This document shows, piece after piece, positions 8,174 through 59,067 of a stretch of DNA of 64,000 bases. The position numbers and the translations under genes were made by a program. The notes beneath the pieces are model-generated. The model was given only the letters and a program-made list of their open reading frames with translations, was not told where the DNA came from and searched no databases. Each line of letters opens with the position of its first letter. The stretch's first letter is position 1. Origin of the DNA: Patiria miniata (Eukaryota); contig NW_024037061.1 in NCBI RefSeq assembly GCF_015706575.1, forward strand, positions 915,897 through 979,896, read 5' to 3'.

Positions 8174-8961
8174 GTGGATTCTTAGTGAGTTCCCCGTATG
8201 TTGGTCAAGGCCTGGTTCCCACCCAGCAGGTCGGAGTAGCTACCCAGCAGATAGGTCTTCCTCAACAGCACTCTGGCAGAAGCACCCCACTCCTTGATGT
8301 CTCCCAGCAGCATTCGGGACGCAGCACTCCTCAACTGGTTTATGTCCAACAGCCTGCCGTTGTTCCTGTTGTTGTGCCTCCTCAGCCGAATTTGGTTCCT
8401 CAACTGCAAGTTGGTCTTCAGAGAGAGCAGGCGATTTTCCAGCAATCGGGGGTTCCTATCCAACAGGGAGGTGGTTCCCAACAGGTAGAGGTTGGTTCCC
8501 AACAAGTAGGGATCGATTCGCAGCTAGTGGGCATTGGTTTCCAACAAGAAGGGGTTGGTTCCGAACAGGTTGGCATTGGTTCCCAACAAGTTGGCATTGG
8601 TTCTGAGCAAGGAGGGTTTGGTACCCAACAAGATGGCATTGGTTCCTATCAAGGATCGTTTGGTTCCCAACAGGTTGGCACTGGTTCTCAACAAGTTGGC
8701 ATTGGTTCAGATCAAGGAGTGTTTGGTTCTCCTCAGGTGGGGATTGGTTTCCATCCGGTAGGAATCGGTTCTCCGCAGGTTGGAATCGGTTCCCCACAGG
8801 AGATGGCTTCCCAGCCAGCAGGGATGGCTGCTGATCCGCCGGCCACGCTCCATGGGTCTGATGAGAGGGAGACGGTTCAAGATCAGGAGATTGGTGAACT
8901 GCAAATGGGAGGAGACGAGCAGTACCGGGACGACAAGCTACTCCTTGTCGACACAGATTAG
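8174..8961 (+). CDS. MS4A/CD20-like protein, terminal exon: Gln/Gly-rich tail with ~16 heptad repeats (GSQQVGI), stop TAG at 8959-8961
   Basis: Acceptor ttattcgcgcag|. Joining g from exon 5 to GT here gives Gly and continues the 285-aa ORF at 8104-8961. It contains a 21-bp tandem coding repeat at 8440-8810. Confidence 0.55.
8440..8810 (+). repeat. 21-bp coding minisatellite (ggttcccaacaagttggcatt)n, ~17 copies, inside the terminal exon
   Basis: Imperfect 21-nt periodicity is visible in the sequence. It translates to GSQQVGI-type heptads. Confidence 0.8.
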
Positions 8962-15669: not shown

Positions 15670-15835
15670 ATGGCACAGTTTTCTATTCTGTTGACACAGA
15701 ATGGCTATTTATTAAACTGGAAGTCTTTTCATGCATCCGGTCTGGACATTGGGCTGGATTTAGCCCATTCATTTGTGTTACGGGGTAATCCTATACAATA
15801 GCACTGCCTGGCTTTCTTCAGTAGTCGACAGCCAT
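15670..15835 (+). repeat. Copy of the gggtaatcctatacaatagcactgccc element
   Basis: Similarity to 44060-44230 (ttatttatt...catgcatc.gg...attgggc...atttagcccatt...gggtaatcctatacaatagcactgcc). Confidence 0.45.
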
Positions 15836-15846
15836 TCCAATTCAGT

Positions 15847-16135
15847 GGGGTGCTGTGGTGCAATGGTTATGGTGTTCAACTCGCATGCCGTGGTTCGTGG
15901 GTTCGAATCCTGACGGGGACCATGGTGCTTGTGCTCTTGAGCAAGGCACTTTACCATTATATGCTTTGTCCTTTGGATAGGATGACAGCCTCAGGTCCCG
16001 TGTGTTATGTAAAACACCAGTAGCACTTATCGCTAAGAGAAGGGGTTTGCCCCGGTGTTTCTGGCAGTGGCTGCAATATGCGCCGCAGCACCTCGTTAAC
16101 CCTTATAAGGTGCTACATAATGGGTCTCATATTTC
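15847..16135 (+). mobile_element. tRNA-derived SINE (tRNA-like head with GGTTCGAATCC T-loop, then a body shared with 38325-38500)
   Basis: The head GGGGTGCTGTGGTGCAATGG...GTGGGTTCGAATCCTGACGGGGACCA has tRNA A/B-box character. The body ...cttgagcaaggcactttacc... recurs at 38400-38440. Confidence 0.6.
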
Positions 16136-18811: not shown

Positions 18812-18935
18812 GCCTATTTTTTTTTTTTTTTTTTTTTTACGTTGATCAAAGAAATTGACTGGAGTAAGGTTTGGACCCGCAACCTCCGGATTGCCGTTCC
18901 GGTGCTCTACCAACTGAGCTATCCAGCCCTATGTT
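18812..18935 (-). mobile_element. tRNA-like mini-SINE / pseudo-tRNA (cloverleaf-like but with anticodon loop ACGGCAA and a degenerate T-stem) with an A-tail
   Basis: Minus strand reads GGCTGGATAGCTCAGTTGGTAGAGCACCGGAACGGCAATCCGGAGGTTGCGGGTCCAAACCTTACTCCAGTC followed by poly-A. A second copy lies at 51770-51900. Confidence 0.5.
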
Positions 18936-23400: not shown

Positions 23401-26400
23401 AAATTGATCAAATTTATGATTTTTGTTCCCAATAATGACACAATTTCAGCCAAAATTGAGCCAATTTTGCCGGTCTGAATATTAAATCGTGATCCCAAAG
23501 CCTTAATATGCATTTCTGAGTAGTTTGGAAAAAATTCATTTTTTTGGCCAAAATTGAAAAAAAAGTAAGGCTAACCCCTTACATTTTTTTCAAATTTGGC
23601 TGAAAAATGAAATTTCTTGAAACTTGCTTGGAAGAGGCCTCAGGGTCCCTAGAACACGTTTCCACTCTTACATTGGACAGATATGCCTTTCAAAAGGAAA
23701 TATAACGTCGAAAATTTGAGGTAAAATTGGTCAAATTTATGAATTTTTTTCACAATAATGCCACAATTTCGGCCATAATTTAGCCAATTTTGCCGGTCTG
23801 AATATTAAACCGTGTTCCCAAAGCCTTAATATGCATTGCTGAGTAGTTTGGAGAAAATTCATTTTTTGGCCAAAATTGAAAAAAAAGTAAGGCTAACCCC
23901 TTACATTTTTTTTCAAATTTGGCTGAAAAATGAAATTTCTTGAAACTTGCTGGGAAGATGCCTCAGGGTCCCTAGAACACGTTTCCACTCTTACATTGGA
24001 CAGATATGCCTTTCAAAAGGAAATATAACGTCGAAAATTTGAGGTAAAATTGGTCAAATTTATGATTTTTTTTCCCAATAATGCCACAATTCCGGCCAAA
24101 ATTTAGCCAATTTTGCCGGTCTAAATATTAAATCGTGATCCCAACACCTTATTATGCATTACTGAGTAGTTTGGAGAAAATTCATTTTTTGGCAAAAATT
24201 GAAAAAAAGTAAGGGTAACCCCTTACATTTTTTTCAAAGTTGGCTGAAAAATGAAATTTCTTGCAACTTGCTGGGAAGATGCATCAGGGTCCCTAGAACA
24301 CGTTTCCACTCTTACATTGGACAGATATGCCTTTCAAAAGGAAATATAACGTCGAAAATTTGAGGTAAAATTGGTCAAATTTATGAATTTTTTAACCAAT
24401 AATGCCACAATTTCGGCACAAATTTAGCCAATTTTGCCGGTCTGAATATTAAATCGTGATCCCAAAGCCTTTATATGCATTTCTGAGTAGTTTGGAGAAA
24501 ATTCATTTTTTGGCCAAAATTGAAAAAAAAGTAAGGCTAACCCCTTACATTTTTTTCAAATTTGGCTGAAAAATGAAATTTCTTGAAACTTGCTGGGAAG
24601 ATGCCTCAGGGTCCCTAGAACACGTTTCCACTCTTACATTGGACAGATATGCCTTTCAAAAGGAAATATAACGTCCACAATTTGAGGTAAAATTGGTCAA
24701 ATTTATGATTTTTGTTCCCAATAATGCCACAATTTCAGCCGAAATTGAGCCAATTTTGCCGGTCTGAATATTAAATCGTGATCCCAAAGCCTTAATATGC
24801 ATTTCTGAGTAGTTTGGAGAAAATTCATTTTTTGGCCAAAATTGAAAAAAAAGTAAGGCTAACCCCTTACATTTTTTTCAAATTTGGCTGAAAAATGAAA
24901 TTTCTTGAAACTTGCTGGGAAGATGCCTCAGGGTCCCTAGAACACGTTTCCACTCTTACATTGGACAGATATGCCTTTCAAAAGGAAATATAACGTCGAA
25001 AATTTGAGGTAAAATTGATCAAATTTATGATTTTTGTTCCCAATAATGACACAATTTCAGCCAAAATTGAGCCAATTTTGCCGGTCTGAATATTAAATCG
25101 TGATCCCAAAGCCTTAATATGCATTTCTGAGTAGTTTGGAAAAAATTCATTTTTTGGCCAAAATTGAAAAAAAAGTAAGGCTAACCCCTTACATTTTTTT
25201 CAAATTTGGCTGAAAAATGAAATTTCTTGAAACTTGCTTGGAAGAGGCCTCAGGGTCCCTAGAACACGTTTCCACTCTTACATTGGACAGATATGCCTTT
25301 CGAAAGGAAATTTAACGTCCACAATTTGAGGTAAAATTGGTCAAATTTATGATTTTTGTTCCCAATAATGCCACAATTTCAGCCGAAATTGAGCCAATTT
25401 GCCGGTCTGAATATTAAATCGTGATACCAAAGACTTTATATGCATTTCTGAGTAGTTTGGAGAAAATTCATTTTTTGGCCAAAATTGAAAAAAAAGGAAG
25501 GCTAACCCCTTACATTTTTTTCAAATTTGGCTGAAAAATGAAATTTCTTGAAACTTGCTGGGAAGATGCCTCAGGGTCCCTAGAACACGTTTCCACTCTT
25601 ACATTGGACAGATATGCCTTTCAAAAGGAAATATAACGTCGAAAATTTGAGGTAAAATTGGTCAAATTTATGATTTTTGTTCCCAATAATGCCACAATTT
25701 CAGCCGAAATTCAGCCAATTTTGCCGGTCTGAATATTAAATCGTGATCCCAAAGCCTTAATATGCATTTCTGAGTAGTTTGGAGAAAATTCATTTTTTTG
25801 CCAAAATTGAAAAAAAAGTAAGCCTAACCCCTTACATTTTTTTCAAATTTGGCTGAAAAATGAAATTTCTTGAAACTTGCTGGGAAGATGCCTCAGGGTC
25901 CCTAGAACACGTTTCCACTCTTACATTGGACAGATATGCCTTTCAAAAGGAAATATAACGTCGAAAATTTGAGGTAAAATTGATCAAATTTATGATTTTT
26001 GTTCCCAATAATGACACAATTTCAGCCAAAATTGAGCCAATTTTGCCGGTCTGAATATTAAATCGTGATCCCAAAGCCTTAATATGCATTTCTGAGTAGT
26101 TTGGAAAAAATTCATTTTTTTGGCCAAAATTGAAAAAAAAGTAAGGCTAACCCCTTACATTTTTTTCAAATTTGGCTGAAAAATGAAATTTCTTGAAACT
26201 TGCTTGGAAGATGCCTCAGGGTCCCTAGAACACGTTTCCACTCTTACATTGGACAGATATGCCTTTCAAAAGGAAATATAACGTCGAAAATTTGAGGTAA
26301 AATTGATCAAATTTATGATTTTTGTTCCCAATAATGACACAATTTCAGCCAAAATTGAGCCAATTTTGCCGGTCTGAATATTAAATCGTGATCCCAAAGC

Positions 26401-29400
26401 CTTAATATGCATTTCTGAGTAGTTTGAAAAAAAATCATTTTTTTGGCCAAAATTGAAAAAAAAGTAAGGCTAACCCCTTACATTTTTTTCAAATTTGGCT
26501 GAAAAACGAAATTTCTTGAAACTTGCTTGGAAGAGGCCTCAGGGTCCCTCTTACATTGGACAGATATGCCTTTCAAAAGGAAATATAACGTCCACAATTT
26601 GAGGTAAAATTGGTCAAATTTATGATTTTTGTTCCCAATAAATTACATTGGACAGATATGCCTTTCAAAAGGAAATATAACGTCCACAATTTGAGGTAAA
26701 ATTGGTCAAATTTATGATTTTTGTTCCCAATAATGCCACAATTTTAGCCGAAATTTAGCCAATTTTGCCGGTCTGAATATTAAATCGTGATCCCAAAGCC
26801 TTTATATGCATTTCTGAGTAGTTTGGAGAAAATTCAATTTTTTGGCCAAAATTGAAAAAAAAATAAGGCTAACCCCTTACAATTTTTTCAAATTTGGCTG
26901 AAAAATGAAATTTCTTGAAACTTGCTGGGAAGATGCCTCAGGGTCCCTAGAACACGTTTCCACTCTTACATTGGACAGATATGCCTTTCAAAAGGAAATA
27001 TAACGTGGAAAATTTGAGGTAAAATTGATCAAATTTATGATTTTTGTTCCCAATAATGACACAATTTCAGCCAAAATTGAGCCAATTTTGCCGGTCTGAA
27101 TATTAAATCGTGATCCCAAAGCCTTAATATGCATTTCTGAGTAGTTTGGAGAAAATTCATTTTTTGGCCAAAATTGAAAAAAAAGTAAGGCTAACCCCTT
27201 ACATTTTTTTCAAATTTGGCTGAAAAATGAAATTTCTTGAAACTTGCTTGGAAGAGGCCTCAGGGTCCCTAGAACACGTTTCCACTCTTACATTGGACAG
27301 ATATGCCTTTCAAAAGGAAATATAACGTCCACAATTTGAGGTAAAATTGGTCAAATTTATGATTTTTGTTCCCAATAATGCCACAATTTCAGCCGAAATT
27401 GAGCCAATTTTGCCGGTCTGAATATTAAATCGTGATCCCAAAGCCTTTATATGCATTTCTGAGTAGTTTGGAGAAAATTCATTTTTTGGCCAAAATTGAA
27501 AAAAAAGTAAGGCTAACCCCTTACATATTTTTCAAATTTGGCTGAAAAATGAAATTTCTTGAAACTTGCTGGGAAGATGCCTCAGGGTCCCTAGAACACG
27601 TTTCCACTCTTACATTGGACAGATATGCCTTTCAAAAGGAAATATAACGTCCACAATTTGAGGTAAAATTGATCAAATTTATGATTTTTGTTCCCAATAA
27701 TGACACAATTTCAGCCAAAATTGAGCCAATTTTGCCGGTCTGAATATTAAATCGTGATCCCAAAGCCTTAATATGCATTGCTGAGTAGTTTGGAGAAAAT
27801 TCATTTTTTGGCCAAAATTGAAAAAAAAGTAAGGCCTTACATTTTTTTCAAATTTGGCTGAAAAATGAAATTTCTTGAAACTTGCTTGGAAGAGGCCTCA
27901 GGGTCCCTAGAACACGTTTCCACTCTTACATTGGACAGATATGCCTTTCAAAAGGAAATATAACGTCGAAAATTTGAGGTAAAATTGATCAAATTTATGA
28001 TTTTTGTTCCCAATAATGCCACAATTTCAGCCAAAATTGAGCCAATTTTGCCGGTCTGAATATTAAATCGTGATCCCAAAGCCTTAATATGCATTGCTGA
28101 GTAGTTTGGAGAAAATTCATTTTTTTGCCAAAATTGAAAAAAAAGTAAGGCTAACCCCTTACATTTTTTTCAAATTTGGCTGAAAAATGAAATTTCTTGA
28201 AACTTGCTTGGAAGATGCCTCAGGGTCCCTAGAACACGTTTCCACTCTTACATTGGACAGATATGCCTTTCAAAAGGAAATATAACGTCCACAATTTGAG
28301 GTAAAATTGGTCAAATTTATGATTTTTGTTCCCAATAATGCCACAATTTCAGCCGAAATTTAGCCAATTTTGCCGGTCTGAATATTAAATCGTGATCCCA
28401 AAGCCTTTATATGCATTTCTGAGTAGTTTGGAGAAAATTCATTTTTTGGCCAAAATTGAAAAAAAAGTAAGGCTAACCCCTTACATTTTTTTCAAATTTG
28501 GCTGAAAAATGAAATTTCTTGAAACTTGCTTGGAAGAGGCCTCAGGGTCCCTAGAACACGTTTCCACTCTTACATTGGACGGATATGCCTTTCAAAAGGA
28601 AATATAACGTCCACAATTTGAGATAAAATTGGTCAAATTTATGATTTTTGTTCCCAATAATGCCACAATTTCAGCCGAAATTGAGCCAATTTTGCCGGTC
28701 TGAATATTAAATCGTGATCCCAAAGCCTTTATATGCATTTCTGAGTAGTTTGGAGAAAATTCATTTTTTTGCCAAAATTGAAAAAAAAGTAAGGCTAACC
28801 CCTTACATTTTTTTCAAATTTGGCTGAAAAATGAAATTTCTTGAAACTTGCTTGGAAGATGCCTCAGGGTCCCTAGAACACGTTTCCTCTCTTACATTGG
28901 ACAGATATGCCTTTCAAAAGGAAATATAACGTCCACAATTTGAGGTAAAATTGGTCAAATTTATGATTTTTGTTCCCAATAATGCCACAATTTCAGCCGA
29001 AATTTAGCCACTTTTGCCGGTCTGAATATTAAATCGTGATCCCAAAGCCTTTATATGCATTTCTGAGTAGTTTGGAGAAAATTCATTTTTTGGCCAAAAT
29101 TGAAAAAAAAGTAAGGCTAACCCCTTACATTTTTTTCAAATTTGGCTGAAAAATGAAATTTCTTGAAACTTGCTGGGAAGATGCCTCAGGGTCCCTAGAT
29201 GACGTTTCCACTCTTACATTGGACAGATATGCCTTTCAAAAGGAAATATAACGTCGAAAATTTGAGGTAAAATTGATCAAATTTATGATTTTTGTTCCCA
29301 ATAATGCCACAATTTCAGCCAAAATTGAGCCAATTTTGCCGGTCTGAATATTAAATCGTGATCCCAAAGCCTTAATATGCATTTCTGAGTAGTTTGGAGA

Positions 29401-32400
29401 AAATTCATTTTTTTTGCCAAAAGTAAAGCTAACCCCTTACATTTTTTTCAAATTTGGCTGAAAAATGAAATTTCTTGAAACTTGCTTGGAAGATGCCTCA
29501 GGGTCCCTAGAACACGTTTCCACTCTTACATTGGACAGATATGCCTTTCAAAAGGAAATATAACGTCCACAATTTGAGGTAAAATTGGTCAAATTTATGA
29601 TTTTTGTTCCCAATAATGCCACAATTTCAGCCGAAATTTAGCCAATTTTGCCGGTCTGAATATTAAATCGTGATCCCAAAGCCTTTATATGCATTTCTGA
29701 GTAGTTTGGAGAAAATTCATTTTTTTGCCAAAATTGAAAAAAAAGTAAGGCTAACCCCTTACATTTTTTTCAAATTTGGCTGAAAAATGAAATTTCTTGA
29801 AACTTGCTTGGAAGATGCCTCAGGGTCCCTAGAACACGTTTCCTCTCTTACATTGGACAGATATGCCTTTCAAAAGGAAATATAACGTCCACAATTTGAG
29901 GTAAAATTGGTCAAATTTATGATTTTTGTTCCCAATAATGCCACAATTTCAGCCGAAATTTAGCCAATTTTGCCGGTCTGAATATTAAATCGTGATCCCA
30001 AAGCCTTTATATGCATTTCTGAGTAGTTTGGAGAAAATTCATTTTTTGGCCAAAATTGAAAAAAAAGTAAGGCTAACCCCTTACATTTTTTTCAAATTTG
30101 GCTGAAAAATGAAATTTCTTGAAACTTGCTTGGAAGAGGCCTCAGGGTCCCTAGAACACGTTTCCACTCTTACATTGGACGGATATGCCTTTCAAAAGGA
30201 AATATAACGTCCACAATTTGAGGTAAAATTGGTCAAATTTATGATTTTTGTTCCCAATAATGCCACAATTTCAGCCGAAATTGAGCCAATTTTGCCGGTC
30301 TGAATATTAAATCGTGATCCCAAAGCCTTTATATGCATTTCTGAGTAGTTTGGAGAAAATTCATTTTTTTGCCAAAATTGAAAAAAAAGTAAGGCTAACC
30401 CCTTACATTTTTTTCAAATTTGGCTGAAAAATGAAATTTCTTGAAACTTGCTGGGAAGAGGCCTCAGGGTCCCTAGAACACGTTTCCACTCTTACATTGG
30501 ACGGATATGCCTTTCAAAAGGAAATATAACGTCCACAATTTGAGGTAAAATTGGTCAAATTTATGATTTTTGTTCCCAATAATGCCACAATTTCAGCCGA
30601 AATTGAGCCAATTTTGCCGGTCTGAATATTAAATCGTGATCCCAAAGCCTTAATATGCATTTCTGAGTAGTTTGGAGAAAATTCATTTTTTGGCCAAAAT
30701 TGAAAAAAAAGTAAGGCTAACCCCTTACATTTTTTTCAAATTTGGCTGGAAAATGAAATTTCTTGAAACTTGCTTGGAAGAGGCCTCAGGGTCCCTAGAA
30801 CACGTTTCCACTCTTACATTGGACAGATATGCCTTTCAAAAGGAAATATAACGTCGAAAATTTGAGGTAAAATTGATCAAATTTATGATATTTGTTCCCA
30901 ATAATGCCACAATTTCAGCCGAAATTTAGCCAATTTTGCCGGTCTGAATATTAAATCGTGATCCCAAAGCCTTAATATGCATTTCTGAGTAGTTTGGAGA
31001 AGATTCATTTTTTGGCCAAAATTGAAAAAAAAGTAAGGCTAACCCCTTACATTTTTTTCAAATTTGGCTGAAAAATGAAATTTCTTGAAACTTGCTGTGA
31101 AGATGCCTCAGGGTCCCTAGATGACGTTTCCACTCTTACATTGGACAGATATGCCTTTCAAAAGGAAATATAACGTCGAAAATTTGAGGTAAAATTGATC
31201 AAATTCATGATTTTTTTTTCCCAATAATGCCACAATTTCAGCCAAAATTGAGCCAATTTTGCCGGTCTGAATATTAAATCGTGATCCCAAAGCCTTAATA
31301 TGCATTTCTGAGTAGTTTGGAGAAAATTCATTTTTTTTTGCCAAAAGTAAAGCTAACCCCTTACATTTTTTTCAAATTTGGCTGAAAAATGAAATTTCTT
31401 GAAACTTGCTGTGAAGATGCCTCAGGGTCCCTAGAACACGTTTCCACTCTTACATTGGACAGATATGCCTTTCAAAAGGAAATATAACGTCCACAATTTG
31501 AGGTAAAATTGGTCAAATTTATGAATTTTTTTCCAAATAATGCCATAATTTCGGCCAAAATTTAGCCAATTTTTCCGGTCTGAATATTAAATCGTGATCC
31601 CAAAGCCTTGATATGCATTGCTGAGCAGTTTGGAGAAAATTCATTTTTTGGCCAAAATTGAAAAACAAGTAAGGCTAACTCCTTACATTTTTTTCAAATT
31701 TGGCTGAAAAATGAAATTTCTTGAAACTTGCTTGGAAGATGCCTCAGGGTCCCTAGAACACGTTTCCACTCTTACATTGGACAGATACGCCTTTCAAAAG
31801 GAAATAATTTATAACGTCGCAAATTTGAGGTAAAATTGGTCAAATTTATGATTTTTTTACCAAATAATGCCACAATTTCGGCCAAAATTTAGCCAATTTT
31901 GCCGGTCTGAATATTAAATCGTGATCCCAAAGCCTCGATATGCATTGCTGAGTAGTTGGGAGAAAATTCATTTTTTTTGCCAAAAGTAAAGCTAACCCCT
32001 TACATTTTTTTCAAATTTGGCTGAAAAATGAAATTTCTTGAAACTTGCTGGGAAGATACCTCAGGGTCCCTAGAACACGTTTCCAATCTTACATTGGACA
32101 GATATGCTTTTCAAAAAGAAATATAACGTCGAAAATTTGAGGTAAAATAGGTCAAATTTATGATTTTTTTACGCATAATGCCACAATTTCGGCCAACATT
32201 TAGCCAATTTTGCCGGTCTGAATATTAAATCGTGATCCCTAAGCCTCGATATGCATTGCTGAGTAGTTGGGAGAAAATTCATTTTTTTTGCCAAAAGTAA
32301 AGCTAACCCCTTACATTTTTTTCAAATTTGGCTGAAAAATGAAATTTCTTGAAACCTGCTGGGAAGATGCATCAGGGTCCCTAGAACACGTTTCCACTCT

Positions 32401-32700
32401 TACATTGGACAGATATGCCTTATATTTTTTGTGTGAATTTTTTGATGAAAAATGTAATTTCTTCAAACTTGCTAAAAAGAAAGGAAAAACAGTCAAATGT
32501 ATTAATTGATTTCGCAATTATTTCAAAATGTAGGAGAAAAATTGCAAAATTTGCTTGTGTGAATATTGAATAAGGGTTATCAAGCCTTCAAAGACAATTC
32601 AAGCAATTTCGAGAAATACCAATTTTTTTTGGCCAAAATTCATCAAAAATGTATTTTCTTTGGCAGAAAATTGTATATCTTAAAACTCGGAAAATCGGAA
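20430..32700. repeat. Satellite array, 322-bp unit x ~37 (core 20880-32430, degenerate edges)
   Basis: Landmark ccccttacat recurs at 21321, 21643, 21965, 22287 ... (period 322). Copies are ~95% identical. One copy is truncated at ~26520-26640. Confidence 0.95.
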
Positions 32701-38099: not shown

Positions 38100-38325
38100 A
38101 GTTCGTGTCGGAAGATGTGATAACACGCACTGGCTGTTTTTATACACAGGCACGGCTGACGGGTTAAGACGTCAAAATTGCCTCGATACGCCTCCGGGTG
38201 ACGTCTAAACACGCTAATCCTTCAGGTGGGACTCGAACCCACGACCTCCTGCTTACTAGTGCAGACGTCTTACAACTCGACCACCGAGCTTGCTACGGTC
38301 AGCTGGCTGGTCCAAATCTCCCCGA
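38100..38325 (-). mobile_element. Inverted copy of the 13640-13945 element (antisense tRNA-like head)
   Basis: Reverse-complement match. The minus strand shows GGTCGTGGGTTCGAGTCCCACC T-loop-like sequence. Confidence 0.5.
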
Positions 38326-39229: not shown

Positions 39230-39890
39230 AATGACACTAGATGACTTATGATAGACTTGTGATGTCTTGTGAATGATTTGTGATGACATTTGACTGACTT
39301 TTGATGACTTGTGCTGGCTTGTGATTGACCTGTGATGACTTTTGATGTGATATGAAAACTTGAGTGATTAATGATGACTTGTGATGGATTTGTGATGACT
39401 TGTGATTTACGTGTGATATACTTGTGATGGCTTGTGGACTTGTGATTGACTTGTGATTGACCTGTGATTGACTTGTGATGACTTTTGATTTACTTGTGTG
39501 GACTTGTGATTGTTTGTGATGACTTGTGATGGACTTGTGATGGACAAGTGGTGGACAAGTGGTGGACTTGTGATGGACTTGTGATGGACTTGTGATGGAC
39601 TTGTGATGGACTTGTGATGGACATGTGATGGACTTGTGATGGACTTGTGATTGAGTTGTGATGGACTTGTGATTGACTTGTAATTGACTTGTAATTGACT
39701 TGTGATAACTTACGTTTATTTGTGATTGACTTGTGATTGACTTATGACTGACTTGTGATTGACCTGTGATTGACTTGTGATGGACTTGTGATCGACTTGT
39801 GATGACTTGTGATTGACTTGTAATTGACTTGTGATTGACTTGGGATTGACTTGGGATTGACTTGGGATTGACTTGAGCAACGACAAGTCA
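39230..39890. repeat. Minisatellite (tgacttgtgat / ggacttgtgat)n, ~60 copies, in a REV3L intron
   Basis: A direct 11-bp period is visible throughout. It is the same motif as 4790-5045. Confidence 0.9.
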
Positions 39891-39960
39891 ATGACAAGTC
39901 AATCACACCAAAAATACTGGTTTCCCGACAGAGCCACACAATTTGTCACGGAGAAAATAC

Positions 39961-40098
39961 CTTGCCAACCGCAGGACAGGAATCTCTGCGTACTGTCTCA
40001 ATCCCCTTAGCATCAAACTCGGGCTCAACCTGGTCAGGCGATTCGTAGCTGTAGCCAACGTAACGCTTCTTGGATTGCAAGACACACGGATGATAAAC
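39961..40098 (-). CDS. REV3L: REV3L exon (VYHPCVLQSKKRYVGYSYESPDQVEPEFDAKGIETVRRDSCPAVGK)
   Basis: Acceptor ctgcag| and donor AAG|GTATTT. The KKRYVGY motif is conserved. Confidence 0.9.
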
Positions 40099-40619
40099 CT
40101 GCAGAATGCAAAAGATTATCAGAAATCATAATAAGTGACAAAATACTTTTCCGGTTAAAGACACAGAGGTTCATTAGCATGTATCCCAAAAGTAGACTAC
40201 CACATATATTATAAAAAAGCTTACTTGGATTAAAGATTGCACTGGTACTATAAACACCCCGTGAAATTATTCCATCTGGCTTGCTGTCATTTAGAAGAAA
40301 TCAAGAAATGTACGTGATTTCCAACGATCAGTCGATCGACAGATTTTTTGGAAATGAAGAGTGAAGAGACAAAATCGTACTGATCAAAAGGTTGTGCGTG
40401 GTTTTCACTGCTTTCTCGAAAAGTGTAATATCTACTGAGCTGAAACTTCAACAGGTTAGGTTCTGAACATTCTTCTTTGGATTTTGAGTGGTGTTTTTAT
40501 TTGAAACGAGCAAAATGCATGAAAAGCAAATGATCCTATATGCCTTTAAGGTTGACAGGGTGGATGAGGGAATGTTATATTTGATCAGCAATGGGACAGG
40601 ATGTCCACTTATTACAGAC

Positions 40620-40734
40620 CTTTTCCAGTTTGAGTTTGACCGGTTTGGGATTGGCAGCCGTGACAGCATCTCGGATCTCCCTCCCGACCTCAAAGGCACG
40701 CTCCTTGCTCGCTCCTTCAACCAACACAAACATG
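40620..40734 (-). CDS. REV3L: REV3L exon (MFVLVEGASKERAFEVGREIRDAVTAANPKPVKLKLEK)
   Basis: Acceptor ttcacag| and donor AAG|GTCTGT. It matches vertebrate MFVLLKGATKEQSFKIGQEIAEAVTATNPKPVKLKFEK. Confidence 0.9.
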
Positions 40735-40859
40735 CTGTGAAGAAAAAACGGAAGCAAATCAGTAAGTAAAGTAAGTAACATCTGACATGAGCCAACTCAT
40801 CACGCCGGCGTTTTTCTCCGGTTTCTTAGACATGAAACGACTGAGATACTTGTATTCCC

Positions 40860-41030
40860 CCTGGATGGGATACCAGCTAATGCCGGTACCCATTCATACT
40901 CCTGGGTGGAGAGAGGCAAGGGGGGTGAAGTGGCTTGCCCAAGGACACACATATGGCCAGCGGCTGGATTCGAACCCCTGACTCTCTGATTACGAGTCAC
41001 AAACCCTAACCACTAGACCACACTCCCCCA
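40860..41030 (-). mobile_element. tRNA-derived SINE, uninterrupted copy (same family as 2395-2845)
   Basis: Minus strand reads GGGGGAGTGTGGTCTAGTGGTTAGGGTTTGTGACTCGTAATCAGAGAGTCAGGGGTTCGAATCCAGCCGCTGGCC, then a body collinear with 2395-2524. Confidence 0.6.
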
Positions 41031-41438
41031 TGGCAATCCCATGGCAGTCCCATGGCAATCCCATGGCAATCCTATGGCAATCCCATGGCAATCCCATGGC
41101 AATCCCATGGCAATCCCATGGCAGTCCCACATGAATCTATGAACCCACCTGTCCGTGTCCCCATAAACCACTCTAACCACTAGACCACACTCCCCCATGG
41201 CAATCCCATGGCAATCCCATGGCAATCCCATGGCAATCCCATGGCAATCCCATGGCAATCCAATGGCAATCCCATGGCAATCCCATGGCAATCCCATGGC
41301 AATCCCATGGCAATCCCATGGCAGTCCCACAGGAATCTATGTACCCACCTGTCCGTGTCCCCATAAACCACTCTAACCACTAGACGACCCTCCCCCATGG
41401 CAATCCCATAGCAGTCCCACAGGAATCTATGTACCCAC
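41013..41438. repeat. Composite tandem structure: (catggcaatc)n 10-bp minisatellite blocks (41020-41130, 41195-41330) alternating with two extra copies of the 3' end plus donor of the REV3L motif-C exon
   Basis: The segment cccacaggaatctatg(a/t)acccacct(g/a)tccgtgtccccataaaccactct occurs at 41126-41175, 41326-41375 and in the real exon at 41418-41466. Confidence 0.8.
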
Positions 41439-41548
41439 CTATCCGTGTCCCCATAAACCACTCTGGCTCCCCACTTCTTAGTGCTTTCCACCATATGAAT
41501 GGCTCTCTCCAGTGTCTCACGTCCCTTTCTCACCACGCTGTCACCAAC
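41439..41548 (-). CDS. REV3L: REV3L polymerase motif C exon (VGDSVVRKGRETLERAIHMVESTKKWGARVVYGDTDS)
   Basis: Acceptor ctgacag| and donor AG|GTGGGT. The catalytic YGDTDS motif is conserved. Confidence 0.9.
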
Positions 41549-42243
41549 CTGTCAGACAAAAAGCAAAAACGACGGAAAGTCAAACAGTTGGCACACTCTC
41601 TTCTTTGCACAAAATTATACATAAATTATTTTTTTTTAAATGGCTAATTTAAAGCTACAGCCCATCATTTGCAGCTATCCAAAAAGTAACTGACGTAATT
41701 ATTGCTGTAAAGCATACTTGGTTTTATAGATAGTGATGGGACTAAACTCCCTGTGAAATTATTCTTTCTGGCAAGCTTTCATTTTGAAAAAAACAACGAA
41801 AGAAGGCCATTTCCAATGATGGGTCTAAAGAAGCTTTCTTGGAAATTTCCGTTAATAGTTCGTTTTAAATTCGGCGAAGCGCGCGCAAGCGTTGACAAGA
41901 TGCACACGCGCGCGCAGTTGCTGTAATTCGTCGGTTCAGTGCGCGACATCGCATAGCTGCAATCAGCTCAGTGAGAACGTGTCTCAGACGCTGAATTCAG
42001 GCCCAATTCAAAAACATGACTCAACAACTTTGATTTGAAATCGAGATCCTAGATTATTGTTTTCTCGGAACATACAGCATTCACTGAGATAAAACCTCAT
42101 CAGGTTAGTTGTTCAGCACCCTTCTTAAGATTTTGAGCACTTTTGTTGCTTCAAACGAACAAAATGCACAAATTACAAATGGACGCTATCTTTATATTAT
42201 CCAAACCATGATGTTAACTAGTAGGGTCTGGTTTGGGACCTAC

Positions 42244-42351
42244 CTCGATGCATGGCATTCGCCCAGAGAAGTTTGCCGATGTGTAGCCGTAGGTGACGTT
42301 GGCTATCAACTTAAGAGCCAGCTGTCGGCTGTTCAACATGCGATGTAGCGT
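42244..42351 (-). CDS. REV3L: REV3L polymerase motif B exon (TLHRMLNSRQLALKLIANVTYGYTSANFSGRMPCIE)
   Basis: Acceptor ctcaacag| after a long pyrimidine tract, and donor GAG|GTAGGT. The KxxxN(S/V)xYG motif B is conserved. Confidence 0.9.
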
Positions 42352-43738: not shown

Positions 43739-43882
43739 ATTGGTAGGACACCACGGCGGACACTGGGCTTGACAAACACGATGCCGTTGGGGGAGACGTG
43801 GAGGCTGTCAGACTGGTAGAGTTTCTTGAGTTGGGACACGGAGACAGACAGAGAGCCACATCCCAGGGCATACTCCCCACCA
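43739..43882 (-). CDS. REV3L: REV3L exon (GGEYALGCGSLSVSVSQLKKLYQSDSLHVSPNGIVFVKPSVRRGVLP)
   Basis: Acceptor ttcccaag| and donor AT|GTAAGT. It matches vertebrate ...ITVSPNGVAFVKPSVRKGVLP. Confidence 0.85.
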
Positions 43883-44229
43883 CTTGGGAAAAAAGACAAT
43901 TGAATTCAGTCTTACGAAAACAATTCATTTACTGAACTTCCCCAACTCACAAATTATAGAAGGTAAATTAAATGGAAAAAACCAAAAACCTAAAACAAGC
44001 TAAGGCAAACTTTAAGTAGAGTTGGCCCCAGAGCCCCAAAAATTCTATTCAATTGATTCAGAATGGTTATTTATTGGAAGTCATGCATCTGGTCGAATTC
44101 ACTGGTATAATGGGGTAATCCTATACAATAGCACTGCCCGGCTCACAGCTGACAGTCAGTTAATTAGTCAGTCAGTGCGTCTGTCAGTGAGGTACAGCGG
44201 ACTATAGAATGGCCCTCTCTGGGACCGGG

Positions 44230-45120
44230 AACAGTGACATTACGGGGTCATCCTATACAATAGCACCCTGGCTCACAGGGACAAGCAAAGGTGGCAGTAC
44301 AGGGTAATCCTATACAATAGCACTGCCCAGCTCACAAGTGACGGTCAGTTAGTGAGTCAGGGATTGACAAGCAAAAATGGCTTTACAGGGTTATCCTATA
44401 CAATAGCACTGCCCAGCTCACAAGTGACGGTCAGTTAGTGAGTCAGGGATTGACAAGCAAAAGTGGCGTTACAGTGTAATCCTATACAATAACACTGCCC
44501 AGCTCACAAGTGACGGTCAGTTAGTGAGTCAGGGATTGACAAGCAAAAATGGCGTTACAGTGTAATCCTATACAATAACACTGCCCGGCTCACAAGTGAC
44601 TGTCAGTTAGTGAGTCAGGGATTGACAAGCAAAAATGGCGTTACAGTGTAATCCTATACAATAGCACTGCCCGGCTCACAAGTGACAGTCAGTTAGTGAG
44701 TCAGGGATTGACAAGCAAAAATGGCGTTACAGGGTAATCCTATACAATAGCACTGCCCAGCTCACAAGTAACGGTCAGTTAGTGAGTCAGGGATTGACAA
44801 GCAAAAATGGCTTTACAGGGTTATCCTATACAATAGCACTGCCCGGCTCACAGGTGAGGGTCAGTTAGTGAGTCACGGATGGACAAGCAAAAATGGCATT
44901 ACAGGCGGGTTATCCTATACAATAGCACTGCCCGGCACACAAGTGACAGTCACTTAGTTAGTTGGTGTTCAGTCAGTGAATACAGCGGACTATAGGTTGG
45001 CCCTCTCGTGGGCCAGCAAAAGTGGCCTTAGGGGGTAATCCTATACAATAGCACTGCCCAGCTCACAACTGACAGTCACTTCGTCAGTGAGATAGTCAGT
45101 GACGTACAGCAGACTATAGG
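44230..45120 (+). repeat. 86-bp tandem repeat (~8-10 units) derived from the gggtaatcctatacaatagcactgccc interspersed element
   Basis: cctatacaat recurs at 44309, 44395, 44481, 44567 ... (period 86). A single-copy element head lies at 44060-44230. Confidence 0.85.
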
Positions 45121-51769: not shown

Positions 51770-51900
51770 GTTTTTTTTATAAAGTTGAACAAAGAAATTG
51801 ACTGGAGTAGGGTTTGAACCTGCGACCTCCAAATTGCCGGTCTGGTGCTCTGTCAACTGAGCTATCCAGCCCTATGTTGGAAGTTCCCCAATTTTGCTTT
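51770..51900 (-). mobile_element. Second copy of the tRNA-like mini-SINE (see 18812-18935) in a REV3L intron
   Basis: Minus strand reads GGCTGGATAGCTCAGTTGACAGAGCACCAGACCGGCAATTTGGAGGTCGCAGGTTCAAACCCTACTCCAGTC plus A-tail. The long ORF 51777-52820 reads through it. Confidence 0.5.
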
Positions 51901-52830: not shown

Positions 52831-53126
52831 CTGCGAAAAAGATAACATTAAACCTTGTTATTTTTCTGGAGCGGAGAAATTAATGACTGTTTTAACATAT
52901 TGTGGTGTTTCATCACAAAGACCTGTTGCTGTTTCATATGAGGAAGAAACACATTAAGCACCTGCACTTCATTGTAATACATTATATTTATTCGCTGATC
53001 ACTCCTGCGAACTGTCCAGTGCTTAGGGCGGTTTTGGGCAGAACAGGGAGTATCAGGCAGTGCGCTGTGGGGCAGTGCAGGGACCAATAGGTTAAGAGCT
53101 CAAAGTAAGAAACACTTGACAATTAC

Positions 53127-56100
53127 CTTGGATGGTGTGCGTCATCTGGATTCCCGCAAAATGCCCTCTGGTGGTGGAACTGAGGCAGGCCATACTCTTG
53201 CAGAGATGCCCGCACCATCTCAGCACTTGGGGGACAATGTGAAGGTGTCCAAATTGTGCTCTTTGCCTCCGTAAACGACGTCAGGTTTGGCATTTCTTCT
53301 GCTCTGGAGGTAGTCTGATGTGTGTTTTGCGTCTGATTAGTGTTTTGGTTATCGCTTTCTAGAGAGGATGCTAGTGGAGGTCCTGGGTAGACTGGAGTAC
53401 TTTGTGAGCTGTCATGAGCCTGGTTTTGGACAGCCTTATCCTCTACATCATCTTCTACTGGATGGGTGTTATTCTTGTGCTGATGGCCTCTGTCTGTTTG
53501 CTGACTAGGGTGAGCAGAGAATGCCGAGGATACTGGTATTTCCCTTGTAGACAACAGGGAATCTTGGTGCAAGGCAGATGTTTGTGTCTGGTCCGTACTT
53601 GGTGGTGAAGTTAGACTTTCGTCGTTGCGACCTGGCTGAGAAGTTTGATTGATGGCAGTCTTCTTTGTTACAGTGCTGTCCGAGTGTGCAGGCGGCTGAA
53701 AATGATGACCAGAGTAAACAGTGGGATCTTCACCACTAAGTGATGAGGACCATTCAGACTTAGTCGCGGTAGAGGTCCTATCTGTAGCTTCTCTGTCTCT
53801 GTGGAGATGCCTAATATCTTCTGGATGTTGGGACTGCTCATGTGACTCCCTTACCTGGTATGATGGAGAGTGTCGCGTAGACAGGTTTAGGCTTCCACTC
53901 TCCTCTTGAGACAAGTCAATCTCCATTGCCTCCACCTCTTCATCTGAGTCAGCCTCTTCAACAATTCTTGGAGAACTGGGCGAATTCAACTTGAGTGCTG
54001 ATTCCTTCTTTGTTGGGGACGAAAGGTTCAAGGGCTCTTCGCAGGCATCACCTGTGCTGCTCACTGTTAACTTTTCAACGGCCGGAGATGATAGATATCT
54101 CTGTGTCTTGCTTTCATTTGTGACTGGTATCGGTCTGCCAGAGGATGGGGTATCTGACTGTGAACAGGGCTTTTTCTGGGAGGACCTGTGAGGATCAAGT
54201 GAGGCTCTTGGTGAAGGAGTTTCCGGACAGACAAGCTGTGAAAACGTATCAGAATCATCACTGTTGCTGCCCGATAGGAGATGCCTTTTAGTCTGGTCTT
54301 CCCCAACAGCAACTGAGCCATTCTTAAGTGTCCTTGCACATGTGATTCTGATTTCACTAAAGCTGCATGCACTGAGACCAGAAGAATCTGTTTGTTTACC
54401 CGAAATCAAAGTGGGTGTCAGACTTCCATCATCCATTAGGACATGATCAGATGGATGTCGACTCCTTTGATGATCTGATCCTGTTTCTTTCAAGACTGCA
54501 TCTTGTGTACTCCATGTGTCTTGAGACAAATCAAGAGCACCCGATGATTCCCCAAATTGGCTCCAATGATCTGCTGTCTCGGACACAGAACTTGCCTTCT
54601 GTTCTGTCTTTTGATAATCTTTGGTGATCTTCTCTTGAACAGCTTCCGGGGATCCAGGTGGGTCCTGTTGCAAGGAGCTTCTCTCTGACTCTAGTAATTC
54701 TCTGGTTGGGGAAATGGAAGGTACACGGCTGATGATCAGAGACATGTCTAGTGACAATGATGCACCTGTGCTGCTGGAGCCGTGGGACATGTTACAGATG
54801 TTATCGCTATCCTCTTCTTCCACTTCTTGGCTGGGAGATCTGCGCAACCTCTGTGCTGGTGTGATGTCATCAGAGGACGAACTGAGACTCCTGGCATTTG
54901 GAGTGCCTCCATCACCCAAGGCCTTCACATCCGGTGACAGGGGTCTGTGTTCCGCTTCGGTACCAGAACTCGGCTTGGAAAGAAGTTCAGACCCTGTGGC
55001 AGAGGAACTTGAATCCAAGTCGGAGGTCTGAATATCAGACATCGCAGAGGAATTAGCACAGTCATCCAGACTCTTTCTCTGAGGCATCTGGGCTTGGCCG
55101 TGAACGCAGGTCATATAACCATCTGAATGACCAGCACTCTGTGACATTTTGGCAACTTCTGGATGAGATGGATGTAATGATGCCGCTTTCTTTGTGTCTG
55201 GGCTTGGGGTTGATGCTTCACTGTCCTCCGCAAACATTAATGCACTATCATCAGGAGATGCATTTTCAGTGACAGCAGTTACCCCATTCTGAGTTGCAGT
55301 CAGATTTGTCAACACGTCCACCGATTGATTCTTTTCCAGATTTTTAACCCCAACGACTGATGCCAAGACATTAGTTGTATCATTAGAATCAAGTGAGAGT
55401 TGTACAGGGCTAGACTGTTCGGTTTTCTCAGAAAAGGCCACTCTGCTACTTTGTACACTACCCAATGCAACTTCCTTTCTCTCCTCATGAGTACCTCCAA
55501 CATCGACATCAGCTTCCTTGAGAGTTGTACAGGAGTTTAGAGTGTTGTTCAACTCTGGAGAGTCACCTGGCTTGGTTTGAGATGAAGTAGGGTTAGATGT
55601 TTTGTCGGCTCTTTCTGAGCTCAGGATTGGGATTTCGTTATTGCCAGTTTCAGTTTTGTAATTGTTTTCGTTGGCCAAGTCATCAGGATGCGAGTTCCCA
55701 CAGGAGGTAAAGCCATTCCTTGCTTCTTCCTGACGGGAAGCTTCCACGCCTCTGTGGCCGTCTGTGTGTGTACTTTCTTTCTGTTCTTCACTTGTGACAT
55801 CTGCCTTAGTTTGGTCAACTTCCATCTTGTTTTCTTGCTTGTCCTCAAAAGTTTCACTTCTCACCGGTTCACCTTCATCAAAATTGTCAGTATTGCACAA
55901 ATGTTTAGACTCTGGACTCCTGCTTCTACTGTTGGAGGTCCTGGAGTTGGAGGTATTCAGCTGCGTGTAATCTGTTTGATTCTTCCCCTTCAAGCCAGCA
56001 GTACCACTCTGCGACTTCCCCCTGTTGGTATCTGCGGCTTTCTTCTTAGACTCTTTCTTTTGATCGATCAGTTTCATTCTTTCCCAAGGCTTCTGTACCT

Positions 56101-59067
56101 TGGAGGGTTTATGCTTAGGGGTTATCTCAACAATGCCTTCAGAAGCATGTTGTGCCCTCCTTGAGCTATCCCTGTCGATACTTGGTGACCAGCACCTGGG
56201 CGGTGAGCCCTCTCTTTCATTTCTGTGGGGAGAAAAGTAACCCAGGTTCCACATGGCGTCCCTGTAGAGAGTGGGCTCACTGTCGTCATCATGGATGCTG
56301 GAATGATGCCCATTCACAGTGGTAGGGACAGGTTCAGGTCTAGAGCGAGGCCGGTGTTGGTCATTTGTGGAGACACTTGTGGACAACTGGCTATCAGTTG
56401 CCTTGGTCACAGGTGATTGCCTGGTATCTGACTGAACCACCTTGGCTTGGGTAGCTGTGGGTATGGATGGCAATGGTCCACCCAATGAGCTGTGGCTAGT
56501 GGCGGTAATCATGATTGGCTTCGCTGATCTGGTTTGCGCAAGTTCCATCAAGCTGTTGTTGTGCGTTGCACAATTGCCAGTGGTGGTTGAAGCTGGTTCC
56601 ATCCAGTTGGTGTGCTTTGTGCCATTGCTAGGTGTGGTTGGAACTGGTTCCATCCGGCTGGTGCTTTGCGTTGTACTACTGCTAGTAGTGGTGAAAACTG
56701 GTTCCATCTGGCTTAAACTGTGTTTTACATTATTGGTATACATGGTTGGTTCCAAGTTGGTGTTGTGAGTTTTAATTTGATTTTCGCCATTGCTCGCTGT
56801 AGTTGGCATTGTTCCAATTCGACTTTTATCCGGCTTTGAACCTATGTATGGTAATGAGTCAACGGTGAAGGACAAGTGCTGCTTGTGTCTTGATGAGGGA
56901 CTACTGAGGAGTTTGGATTTTTTTTTGCTACCACAGGGGCGTCCTCTTTTACGTGGGGGACTCTGTTGCTGCTCCTGTACTGCTTTTGCTGTTTGATTGC
57001 AGGCCAGGAGAACAGAGCTGCTGGATTTCATTGTTTTATCAAACCTACGCGGTTCTGAGAGTGGTTGTGACTGTTGATGTGGCTGAGGCTCTGGCAGCAA
57101 CTCGGTAGTTCTTGTCTCCGAGTGCATATGAGACCTCTGTGGGAGAAGCTCTACGGAGTCCTCTTCATCTGACCAACACATGATCTCAAACCCGACGTCG
57201 GGAAAATCGCCTTCATCGTAGCTGATTCTCTCCCTCTTACGAAAGCCGTAGGTCCTGCCGAACATCCACGGGTCCTCGTTACTGTTGGAGCCTTGACTGC
57301 TTTTTCGTTTGTGACTTTTCCGCCTCTCAGCCCAGTCATCACTGCTGTCACTCCCTCGGCGTTTCCTAGAACCTGGACTGCTCTTCTTAATCTGCTTGGT
57401 AGTTTCCAACGGTTCAAAGAGTGCCGTGAAACTGCTACTTTGGCCTGGAGATAAACCTACCCCCAACAAATGACTAGATGGCGTGGTCGTCATTGCAAAA
57501 TTACTGATACTACTACTTGTTGGAATTACTGAAGTGACAGGGCTGGAAGTCTCAGATTTGGAGATTCCAGGATCCACAGCTGTGCTTTGTGCAGCTTCTG
57601 AGTTTGTTATACATGATGGCTCTCCACAAGGTTCTTGAGGAGTCAAACTGAGTTTGTTAAAAGTTCTTGAGAGCATCCCATACCTCTTGGCATCTCTCTC
57701 TGAGAAAAGTTTGCCGTGTGAGCCTTTCCTACTCAATTTTCTGTGTTTGTCAGAGGAGTTTAAACTCTTGTAGTACTTCTCTTGAAGCATGGCCTTTGTC
57801 TTTGTGACGACTGTCTGCTTTTCAGGACATGTCTGCTGAGCAGGAATTCCATTGCCTACGGCTGCTATCTTCTCCAAGACTGGCATTGGAAGATTGTCCT
57901 TAACGCTTGCAAGTTGAGCTGGTGACATCAAGCACGGTGGTTCTTTGGCAATTTCTGACGCATCTTCCCTCTGCACCTCTGATTTGTCTGGGACTGTCAC
58001 TTGAACCCTATCCTTCTCTGCTGTCTCCTCGATTTGTTTATGAGGGCGTCTGCGCTTTATTTTGGGTGTCGAACCAGTGTTTAACTTTTGAGGAGAGCTG
58101 CCAAGTTGTTCTAAAGTCTTCTGTTTGGATGCTTTCTCTATCTGGTCCATCCAGTACTGCTCGTCCATAAACTTTTTTGGGGGTACAATCTTCCTTGAGA
58201 AGCTGCTGCGACGGAATGGCATAGCTTTTAGATTTTCCTTCCGGATCTGTTCTAATTGCTGTTGCGGTAAGCTGGTTCCAGAACAGGTGATTCTTCCCTT
58301 GGAGTCAGTTTCGATTGGGCACTTCATGAGCATAACAACAGGGTTCCACATAGGGTCCTTCTTCACATCACCGACACTAGAATATCCTTTAAGCTCCTCA
58401 CATCCTTTGAAATGGGTTTGGCCTGCTGTGTAAGGCACTTTTACAAGGTGTAGTTTGGATGAGCCTGCTTGATGTTGTGGAGCAGTATTAGTGTCAGAAG
58501 CGGGATCCCTCACCAAAGAAGCTTCCACCTGAACATTTCCTGGAGGGATGTGGTTTGCCGAACTCCTCCCTTGGGTGACTTTTTCTACCACCTTCCATTC
58601 AGAAGAAGATTGGCTCCGGATAGCTCCAGGATCTTTGGACAACAGTTTATCCCGAGCAAGTTCCTGCAGCCACTGCGTTTTCAAAGAAGCTCCTGATAAG
58701 ATTCTTCTCCGTTTGGATTTCGATGCAGCAGCAGGTCTGACTTCCACTGGTTTCTTTGGGACCTTGTGGAGATTCACAACCCCAGGTGGTGTTCCGGTTT
58801 TCTTCCGGATGCCTGGTTTCTGGGCAAGTTTTCTAGCACGCTGAAAGACAGATTTTTGCATTTCCCGTGTGTCAGAGGATGCCAGACCTGTATTGACCCA
58901 AGCCTTTCCTGGACTGGACAGAAGCTGCTTTTTGTGGGAGTAGGTTTTGATCTGGGGCGGAAAGGGACTGAACGTTGCGGCATGGCTTCCCAGAGCATCT
59001 TGATGCAAGTTGGGAGCGACCTTGGGAAGTTGCCTTTTAATGCCAAGACTTTTCTTCTTTGCTGGTT
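53127..59067 (-). CDS. REV3L: REV3L giant central exon (~1980 codons; Ser/Thr/Pro-rich disordered region, contains SPPRCWSP and an AT-hook-like PRKRGRP)
   Basis: A single 5.9-kb open frame on the minus strand. Its 5' end has a strong acceptor (tttgttttctttgtttttccgtcag| at ~59068) and its 3' end a donor (CATCCAAG|GTAATT at 53126). Vertebrate REV3L has an equivalent giant exon. The SPPRCWSP and FCxNPxD landmarks are conserved. Confidence 0.88.

Follow-up and report, generated by a model that had tools for sequence, protein, structure and literature searches.

Tandem duplication of a gene segment that contains AGGT can give rise to an intron, as has been demonstrated for the AGGT model of intron gain (Hellsten et al., 2011, PMC3265369), and the potato RdRp gene is a case of such a gain (PMC4974935). 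The locus described here resembles the AGGT duplications (PMC3265369) in that an intragenic AG|GT duplicate would be spliced out, leaving the coding sequence unchanged, with splice signals copied from the gene itself. In the AGGT model, however, the AGGT lies within an exon and a new intron is born, whereas here an existing, conserved exon-intron junction has been copied, lengthening the intron and adding redundant donors. SINE-linked micro- and minisatellites are also known, from the tRNA-SINE-associated microsatellites of carnivores (PMC1634856). There, as here, a short-period array abuts a tRNA-derived SINE; the carnivore array sits at the 3′ tail of the element, whereas the array described here sits at the 5′ end and is absent from the other copy of the SINE in the window.

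With respect to mechanism, the locus is an ordinary microhomology-type tandem duplication combined with minisatellite dynamics, a new instance of a known event that points to no new mechanism. It shares with tandem duplication at microhomology, followed by unequal crossing-over and slippage, the head-to-tail copies, a single reused junction, a 2-nt microhomology, a variable internal array and an array-rich setting. It differs in that the unit spans the exon-intron boundary of an essential-type gene, ends in the head of a SINE and copies a complete donor twice. We consider it likely that the structure is a lineage-specific and probably non-functional tandem segmental duplication in an intron of REV3.

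When 5′ splice sites compete, the outcome depends on their strength, their proximity and flanking enhancers, and natural alternative donors usually lie a few to tens of nucleotides apart and are conserved. Like 5′-splice-site competition constructs and natural tandem donors, the present intron offers near-identical donors in series before one acceptor. In contrast to the natural cases, the extra donors lie 90 and 290 nt away, are lineage-specific, were made by duplication and are predicted from sequence.

The motif-C exon of a REV3 gene

The window (the whole stretch of eukaryotic DNA analysed, 64,000 nt) carries on its minus strand a gene that homology identifies as the orthologue of the catalytic subunit of DNA polymerase zeta (REV3/REV3L). 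The original prediction had recognized a YGDTD exon of a genome-maintenance gene; this is the motif-C exon of REV3/Pol zeta, as borne out by alignment to yeast Rev3 and a DNA_pol_B match. The exon and its neighbors are as follows.

41439..41548, minus strand: motif-C exon of REV3/Pol zeta, 110 nt, VGDSVV...KKWGARVVYGDTD followed by AG, with the acceptor ...tttgtctgacAG before it
40735..41438, minus strand: intron after the motif-C exon, 704 nt, with the acceptor ...ttttttcttcacAG at 40736-40735
40602..40734, minus strand: next REV3 exon, (S)MFVLVEGASKERAFEVGREIRDAVTAANPKPVKLKLEK, with the donor AAG|GTCTGT

The motif-C exon translates as VGDSVVRKGRETLERAIHMVESTKKWGARVVYGDTD and is followed by AG|GTGGGT, its end thus reading ...VVYGDTD-AG|GTGGGT, and after the acceptor the next exon reads from 40734 as (S)MFVLVEGASKERAF.... 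Joined at 41439|40734, the two exons align without gaps to residues 1110-1184 of yeast Rev3 (E 2e-19), with YGDTDS identical. The pair scores 72 bits against Pol zeta (E 2e-19) versus 30 bits against Pol delta (E 3e-6) and 24 bits against Pol alpha; it is nearer to Pol zeta than to Pol delta, Pol alpha or archaeal PolB, and its named database matches are ‘DNA polymerase zeta’. Furthermore, four spliced exons give a single uninterrupted match to DNA_pol_B (PF00136) of 160.9 bits, with the motif C YGDTDS inside it. The flanking exons, placed by homologue fragments, lie at ~43741-43902, 42238-42351, 40602-40734 and 39955-40101, and all have GT-AG borders. Upstream on the gene strand is an open exon of 1,961 aa (59008-53123, minus strand) with one homologue match, at 36% identity, which we take to fit the giant, poorly conserved central exon of metazoan REV3L. 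Searches of 5.8 billion proteins with the exon pair, the giant exon and an ORF that reads through part of the repeat described below returned no homologue from the same species or a close relative, the exon reaching at best 86% identity and the giant exon 36%. Exact-protein look-ups in public assemblies gave no record of the read-through ORF or of the ORF of the next exon.

Two distant orthologues, L003 (a Tara Oceans contig) and L004 (the single distant orthologue from a scan of metagenome DNA for the pattern of exon end plus donor), have the intron at the identical codon position and phase, reading GAC-AG|GT. Neither of the two has an exon-tail repeat or an 11-mer array near the donor. Two further fragments (P0128 and P0132) read ...VVYGDTD and then continue into unrelated sequence. 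Because L003 and L004 share the intron position and lack the duplicate, the comparison indicates that the intron is old and that the duplication is lineage-specific and derived. Intron gain according to the AGGT model was considered and rejected, the intron after YGDTD-AG being already present in P0128, P0132, L003 and L004.

Anatomy of the repeat

The 704-nt intron consists almost wholly of three repeat units and a SINE. The original prediction held that the exon end and its donor recur twice downstream, interleaved with a minisatellite, and indeed two complete donor copies lie at +90 and +290 nt. It had pictured the exon end as duplicated into the intron; the copies are real, but the true structure is a tandem unit, repeated head to tail, that extends from the exon tail into the head of a SINE. 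The intron start forms three such units, beginning at 41464, 41374 and 41174 on the minus strand, each composed, in order, of 26 nt of exon tail, the GT donor with 26 further intron nucleotides, an 11-bp minisatellite and the first ~20 nt of a tRNA-derived SINE.

41375..41464, minus strand: unit A, 90 nt; exon tail 41464-41439 (the true exon end), GT 41438-41437, 28-nt intron start 41438-41411, 1.5 copies of the 11-mer 41410-41395, SINE-head fragment 41394-41375
41175..41374, minus strand: unit B, 200 nt; exon-tail copy 41374-41349, decoy GT 41348-41347, 28-nt intron copy 41348-41321, 11.5 copies of the 11-mer 41320-41195, SINE-head fragment 41194-41175
41006..41174, minus strand: unit C; exon-tail copy 41174-41149, decoy GT 41148-41147, 28-nt intron copy 41148-41121, 8.5 copies of the 11-mer 41120-41028, SINE head from 41027, running on into the SINE body
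Sequence from the repeated block: AGAGTGGTTTATGGGGACACGGACAGGTGGGT

Within the units, the 26-nt exon tail reads AGAGTGGTTTATGGGGACACGGA[T/C]AG and the 28-nt unique intron start (GT counted) reads GTGGGTACATAGATTCCTGTGGGACTGC; an array of CATGGGATTGC units comes next, and after the array GGGAGTGTGGTCTAGTGGTTAG. The 71 nt from 41464 to ~41394 recur at 41374-41304 with 97.2% identity (E 3e-30) and at 41174-41104 with 94.4% identity (E 1.5e-27), all on the minus strand. TRF detects a period of 200 nt with 2.0 copies and 95% matches, plus an embedded short-period (11-nt) array. The 50-nt blocks at 41326-41375 and 41126-41175 had been located correctly before, but their division into ~45 nt of exon and ~10 nt of intron was wrong, the actual split being 26 nt of exon, the GT and 26 nt of intron. 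Similarly, the minisatellite had been described as a 10-nt repeat, (catggcaatc)n; its measured period is 11, with the unit CCATGGGATTG. Two such units joined make a 22-mer that matches 20 times in the window, always at this locus, whereas chance predicts 0 matches. The single ORF that was said to pass through all copies does exist at 41180-41536 (minus strand, reading ...VVYGDTDRWVHRF...), but it covers only units A and B and stops at a TAG at 41182-41180. Because 200 is not a multiple of 3, copy C is in another frame and is read by a different ORF, 41013-41330.

The SINE had been overlooked in the original prediction. Each unit ends in ~20 nt of its head and the third unit enters the whole element, and it is this component that explains the architecture of the repeat.

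40761..41027, minus strand (gene orientation): tRNA-derived SINE, with a tRNA-like head at 41027-40955, a conserved body and a tail of short tandem repeats; 3′ boundary approximate

The A box, TGGTCTAGTGG, begins at position 8 of the SINE (window 41020-41010); the B box, GGTTCGAATCC, lies near 40975. The body reads ...GTGTCCTTGGGCAAGCCACTTCACC...CTCTCTCCACCCAGGAGTATGAATGGGTACCGG...CCCATCCAGGGGG...AAACCGGAG..., and a tail-like repeat, (TTACTTAC)x2, occupies 40778-40761, ending near 40761. The Rfam tRNA model matches the head over its full length (1-71, at 41027-40955) with 14.5 bits (gathering score 29, E 8), and ARAGORN called no tRNA at the head; a weak full-length match of this kind fits a decayed tRNA-like head. 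By the same match, position 1 of the SINE follows immediately on the last 11-mer unit. Searching the 64-kb window revealed a second copy at 2841-2434 (minus strand), with homologous head and body split by an insertion of ~230 bp, and a more distant relative at 15846-15955 (plus strand). No convincing target-site duplication was seen around the intronic SINE, whose 5′ flank is now the 11-mer array. The core of the element may be Nin-DC/Deu-like.

A rival reading takes the block for a composite mobile or satellite element, an 11-mer array plus a SINE head, that resembles the exon end by chance and is no copy of it. The 11-mer does occur beyond this locus, since similar (CCATGGGACTG)n arrays are present, without a SINE and in both orientations, in two metagenome contigs (L001 and L002) that are unrelated; those contigs, however, have only the 11-mer in common with the window. 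The top matches to the read-through ORF were likewise just translated 11-mer arrays of unrelated metagenome contigs. Nor does the window hold a similar block elsewhere, and its second SINE copy is preceded by neither an 11-mer nor exon-like sequence. Since that copy lacks the 11-mer and such arrays occur without a SINE, the array is probably not a SINE component. A literature search with the 11-mer sequence returned only PCR primers. The copies match the original at 25 of 26 positions of the exon tail and at 26-28 of the 28 positions of donor plus unique intron, far beyond what chance would give. The composite-element reading is most improbable.

A further concern is the assembly, given that a minisatellite-rich tandem repeat is of the type that assemblers mishandle: a single true unit of exon, donor, one 11-mer array and SINE could have been expanded to three. 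The look-ups and protein searches brought to light no second assembly, reads, transcripts or second individual of this species. Spurious expansions, however, normally yield identical copies, and long-read errors are mostly indels, whereas the units are distinguished, in their 76 nt of non-array sequence, by 2-5 point substitutions (A versus B, 3; B versus C, 2; A versus C, 5), with no indels, and variant 11-mers occupy different positions in arrays B and C. Unit A has a private, diverged SINE-head fragment (GGGAGGGTCGTC versus GGGAGTGTGGTC), which cannot come from copying B or C. Furthermore, no join of SINE head and exon tail could appear at all unless one or more of the junctions were real. 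An artefact of this kind is very unlikely. Unit B carries 0 private substitutions. Comparison with the other SINE copy and with the two orthologues, which read GAC-AG|GT, suggests that the differences of unit A are derived, including a synonymous GAT for GAC in the true exon.

Origin of the duplication

The A/B and B/C junctions are identical, …TCTAGTGGTTAG|AGTGGTTTATGG (also given as TCTAGTGGTTAG|AGTGGTTTATG), and in every unit the sequence of the SINE head continues as far as ...GGTTAG and then gives way to exon sequence. The parents read ...GGAGCCAG|AGTGGTTT in the exon (...GCCAG|AGTGG) and ...AGTGGTTAG|GGTTTGTG in the SINE (...GGTTAG|GGTTTG), and the breakpoint microhomology amounts to 2 nt, the AG common to both parents. 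A 7-mer, AGTGGTT, adjoins the breakpoint in both parents and is not the actual crossover point; its presence could be coincidental, the probability that the parents share a 7-mer no more than ~12 nt from each breakpoint being roughly estimated at ~1%.

From these features we infer the following mutational mechanism and order of events. A tRNA-derived SINE would have inserted ~45 nt or more downstream of the motif-C donor, beside a short 11-mer proto-repeat. A single rearrangement, likely caused by a replication template switch or end-joining, would then have linked the SINE head (…TCTAGTGGTTAG) to a point in the exon 26 nt before the donor (AGAGTGGTTTATGG…) and so doubled a segment made up of exon tail, donor, start of the intron, 11-mer array and SINE head. 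A third unit with the same junction may have come from unequal exchange between these two, and slippage would have altered the copy number of the 11-mer to the present 1.5, 11.5 and 8.5. The SINE-head fragments in units A and B indicate that the duplication came after the SINE insertion, and the recurrence of one junction type speaks for a single founding tandem duplication, followed by amplification to three through unequal exchange. A large target-site duplication of the SINE was ruled out as the source, since every copy is located 5′ of the SINE and has its own SINE-head fragment.

The surroundings are rich in similar structures. The window holds about ten distinct tandem arrays, including two arrays of another 11-mer (TGACTTGTGAT; 18.6 and 59.6 copies), 11.5 kb of a tandemly repeated 322-bp satellite, and arrays of 86-, 82- and 29/58-bp units in other REV3 introns. 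The 59.6-copy array begins ~75 nt after the donor of the exon at 39955-40101 and has captured no exon sequence. Judging from this abundance, local tandem duplication is evidently frequent in this genome, and the duplication near 41 kb is special only in that its unit crosses an exon-intron boundary.

Donors and predicted splicing consequences

Three donors precede the acceptor at 40735, each scored with a generic donor matrix.

41433..41441, minus strand: authentic donor A, TAG|GTGGGT, GT 41438-41437, score 4.35
41343..41351, minus strand: decoy donor B, CAG|GTGGGT, GT 41348-41347, score 5.97, +90 nt from A, in frame
41143..41151, minus strand: decoy donor C, CAG|GTGGGT, GT 41148-41147, score 5.97, +290 nt from A, out of frame

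The suggestion that the copies contain decoy donors is credible. All three sites are identical from -2 to +6 (AG|GTGGGT), and at -3 the true donor has T and the decoys the consensus C; with this generic score the three are the top GT sites of the intron, decoys B and C coming first. C at position -3 of a donor pairs with U1 snRNA. To find decoys that match the consensus better than donor A and show no mutational decay is somewhat unexpected if they are harmful; with only ~0.3 substitutions expected per 9-nt site, however, a count of zero is uninformative. Cryptic splicing and replication-slippage instability, which the original prediction had suggested as consequences, are conjectural.

Only donor A, joined to the acceptor at 40735, yields the conserved gapless sequence ...YGDTDSMFV..., and we infer for this reason that donor A is mainly used. 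The authentic donor comes before the duplication, and splicing from 41438 to 40735 would accordingly remove the whole of it and give a normal protein; the duplication would be silent and the allele could persist. The copied stretch of exon comprises its final eight complete codons (RVVYGDTD) and the AG that opens the next codon. Use of donor B would consequently add exactly 90 nt in an open frame, or 30 aa (RWVHRFLWDCYGIAMGEGRLVVRVVYGDTD), and remake ...RVVYGDTD|SMFV...; use of donor C would extend the exon by 290 nt into an in-frame TAG at 41182-41180.

These predicted products raise the question of whether donor B, and perhaps donor C, serves as a functional alternative 5′ splice site that is used appreciably, with B giving an in-frame isoform longer by 30 aa and C a transcript targeted to NMD that lowers REV3. 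Such a role would accord with the intactness of B and C, with their advantage over A in consensus match (the extra C at -3 being able to pair with U1 snRNA), and with the distance from A to B of exactly 90 nt in an open frame that restores the motif. The arrays are G-triplet-rich and such sequence follows each donor; in the small introns of vertebrates, G triplets promote use of the 5′ splice site upstream of them. The added peptide, however, would be a translation of intron, minisatellite and SINE, with other translated 11-mer arrays as its only homologues; it would sit directly before the catalytic β-hairpin of the palm domain, it is absent from orthologues, and its in-frame length hangs on a labile array of 1.5 units. 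Taken together, we regard appreciable use of the decoys as unlikely. That donor B in fact supplies a lineage-specific Pol zeta isoform with a 30-residue insertion before an intact hairpin, or that donor C acts as an NMD-coupled brake on REV3, appears quite unlikely; if it were true, the donor-B isoform would have been born in one step from a SINE-anchored tandem duplication.

In the RNA fold predicted for the exon with its intron, imperfect hairpins formed by the arrays, which contain the palindrome CCAUGG, predominate (z = -4.8), and this fold showed no clear differential masking among the three donors. Sub-threshold miRNA-like Rfam matches in the array were dismissed as artefacts of its self-complementarity. 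Recursive splicing, or a mini-intron between units, was likewise ruled out, the AGs at the unit junctions having no upstream polypyrimidine tract.

If real, the probable tandem duplication in REV3 would be a clean natural case of a duplication that spans an exon-intron boundary and is silent since the upstream donor restores the reading frame, by the same logic as the AGGT duplications that create introns. It would also show a SINE head acting as a duplication breakpoint. In practice, the locus is mainly a hazard for annotation: predictors could choose the in-frame donor B, and the annotated REV3 protein would then carry a spurious insertion of 30 aa and two YGDTD motifs. The duplication may, furthermore, serve as a polymorphic marker. 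Finally, the two equal-or-stronger decoys beside the catalytic exon of a translesion polymerase would, if real, constitute a natural 5′-splice-site competition experiment.

Open reading frames around the giant REV3 exon and at 8 kb

53123-59008 (-), REV3L-type giant exon, open over 1,961 aa
51777-52820 (-), 347-aa ORF downstream of the giant exon
8104-8961 (+), 285-aa ORF, Gln/Gly/Val-rich

In a collection of 5.8 billion proteins, the giant exon of REV3, which encodes the catalytic subunit of DNA polymerase zeta, found one match (ENA ERZ26222911; 36% identity over 47%); that collection seems to contain neither the source species nor its near kin. The 285-aa ORF carries a 21/63-bp coding-like tandem repeat, read as …QQVGIGS… repeats.

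Satellite and longer tandem arrays

20926-32421, AT-rich satellite array with a 322-bp unit (11.5 kb, 35.6 copies, 90% matches)
26551-26733, 92-bp unit in exactly two copies, within the 322-bp satellite
44280-44962, 86-bp tandem array of 7.9 copies, in a REV3 intron

The satellite array occupies the low-GC part of the window (~34%). The two 92-bp copies within it are 100% identical, whereas the head-to-tail REV3 units differ between copies; this perfect identity may point to an event in the very recent past or to a problem with the assembly. The 86-bp array shares the motif GGGTAATCCTATACAATAGCACTGCC with 15780-15812, directly 5′ of a SINE-like element at 15846-15955, and this sharing suggests that the sequence bearing the motif is a dispersed element that additionally builds arrays.

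SINEs and tRNA-like sequences

2434-2841 (-), second copy of the tRNA-derived SINE family of the REV3 intron
18856-18928 (-), tRNA-like, called tRNA-Ala(GGC) by ARAGORN
51799-51871 (-), tRNA-like, called tRNA-Ala(GGC) by ARAGORN
38222-38287 (-), tRNA-like

In the second SINE copy, a ~230-bp insertion separates the tRNA-like head from the body. The elements at 18856 and 51799, the latter just 3′ of the giant REV3 exon region, are ~100 nt long, each with a poly(A) tail and with flanks that are nearly identical between the two (…CCAACATAGGGCTGGATAGCTCAG…). On these grounds they are not tRNA genes but members of another tRNA-SINE family, one that is short and ends in poly(A).

Minisatellites with an 11-bp period

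39242-39875, 59.6 copies of the 11-bp unit TGACTTGTGAT
4827-5028, 18.6 copies of TGACTTGTGAT

Downstream of REV3 exon 39955-40101, the longer array starts ~75 nt past the splice donor. TGACTTGTGAT is distinct from CCATGGGATTG, the 11-bp unit inside the REV3 units, and with arrays of both present, 11-bp periods are recurrent in this genome. Two contigs of one metagenome project, WEIG22-1 (ERZ23499512, L001; ERZ23499182, L002), contain several arrays of (CCATGGGACTG)n, some in one orientation and some in the other, which are 85-90% identical to the array inside the REV3 units; L001 and L002 share no sequence with the window besides these 11-mer arrays. At least one eukaryotic genome besides this one carries the 11-mer motif.
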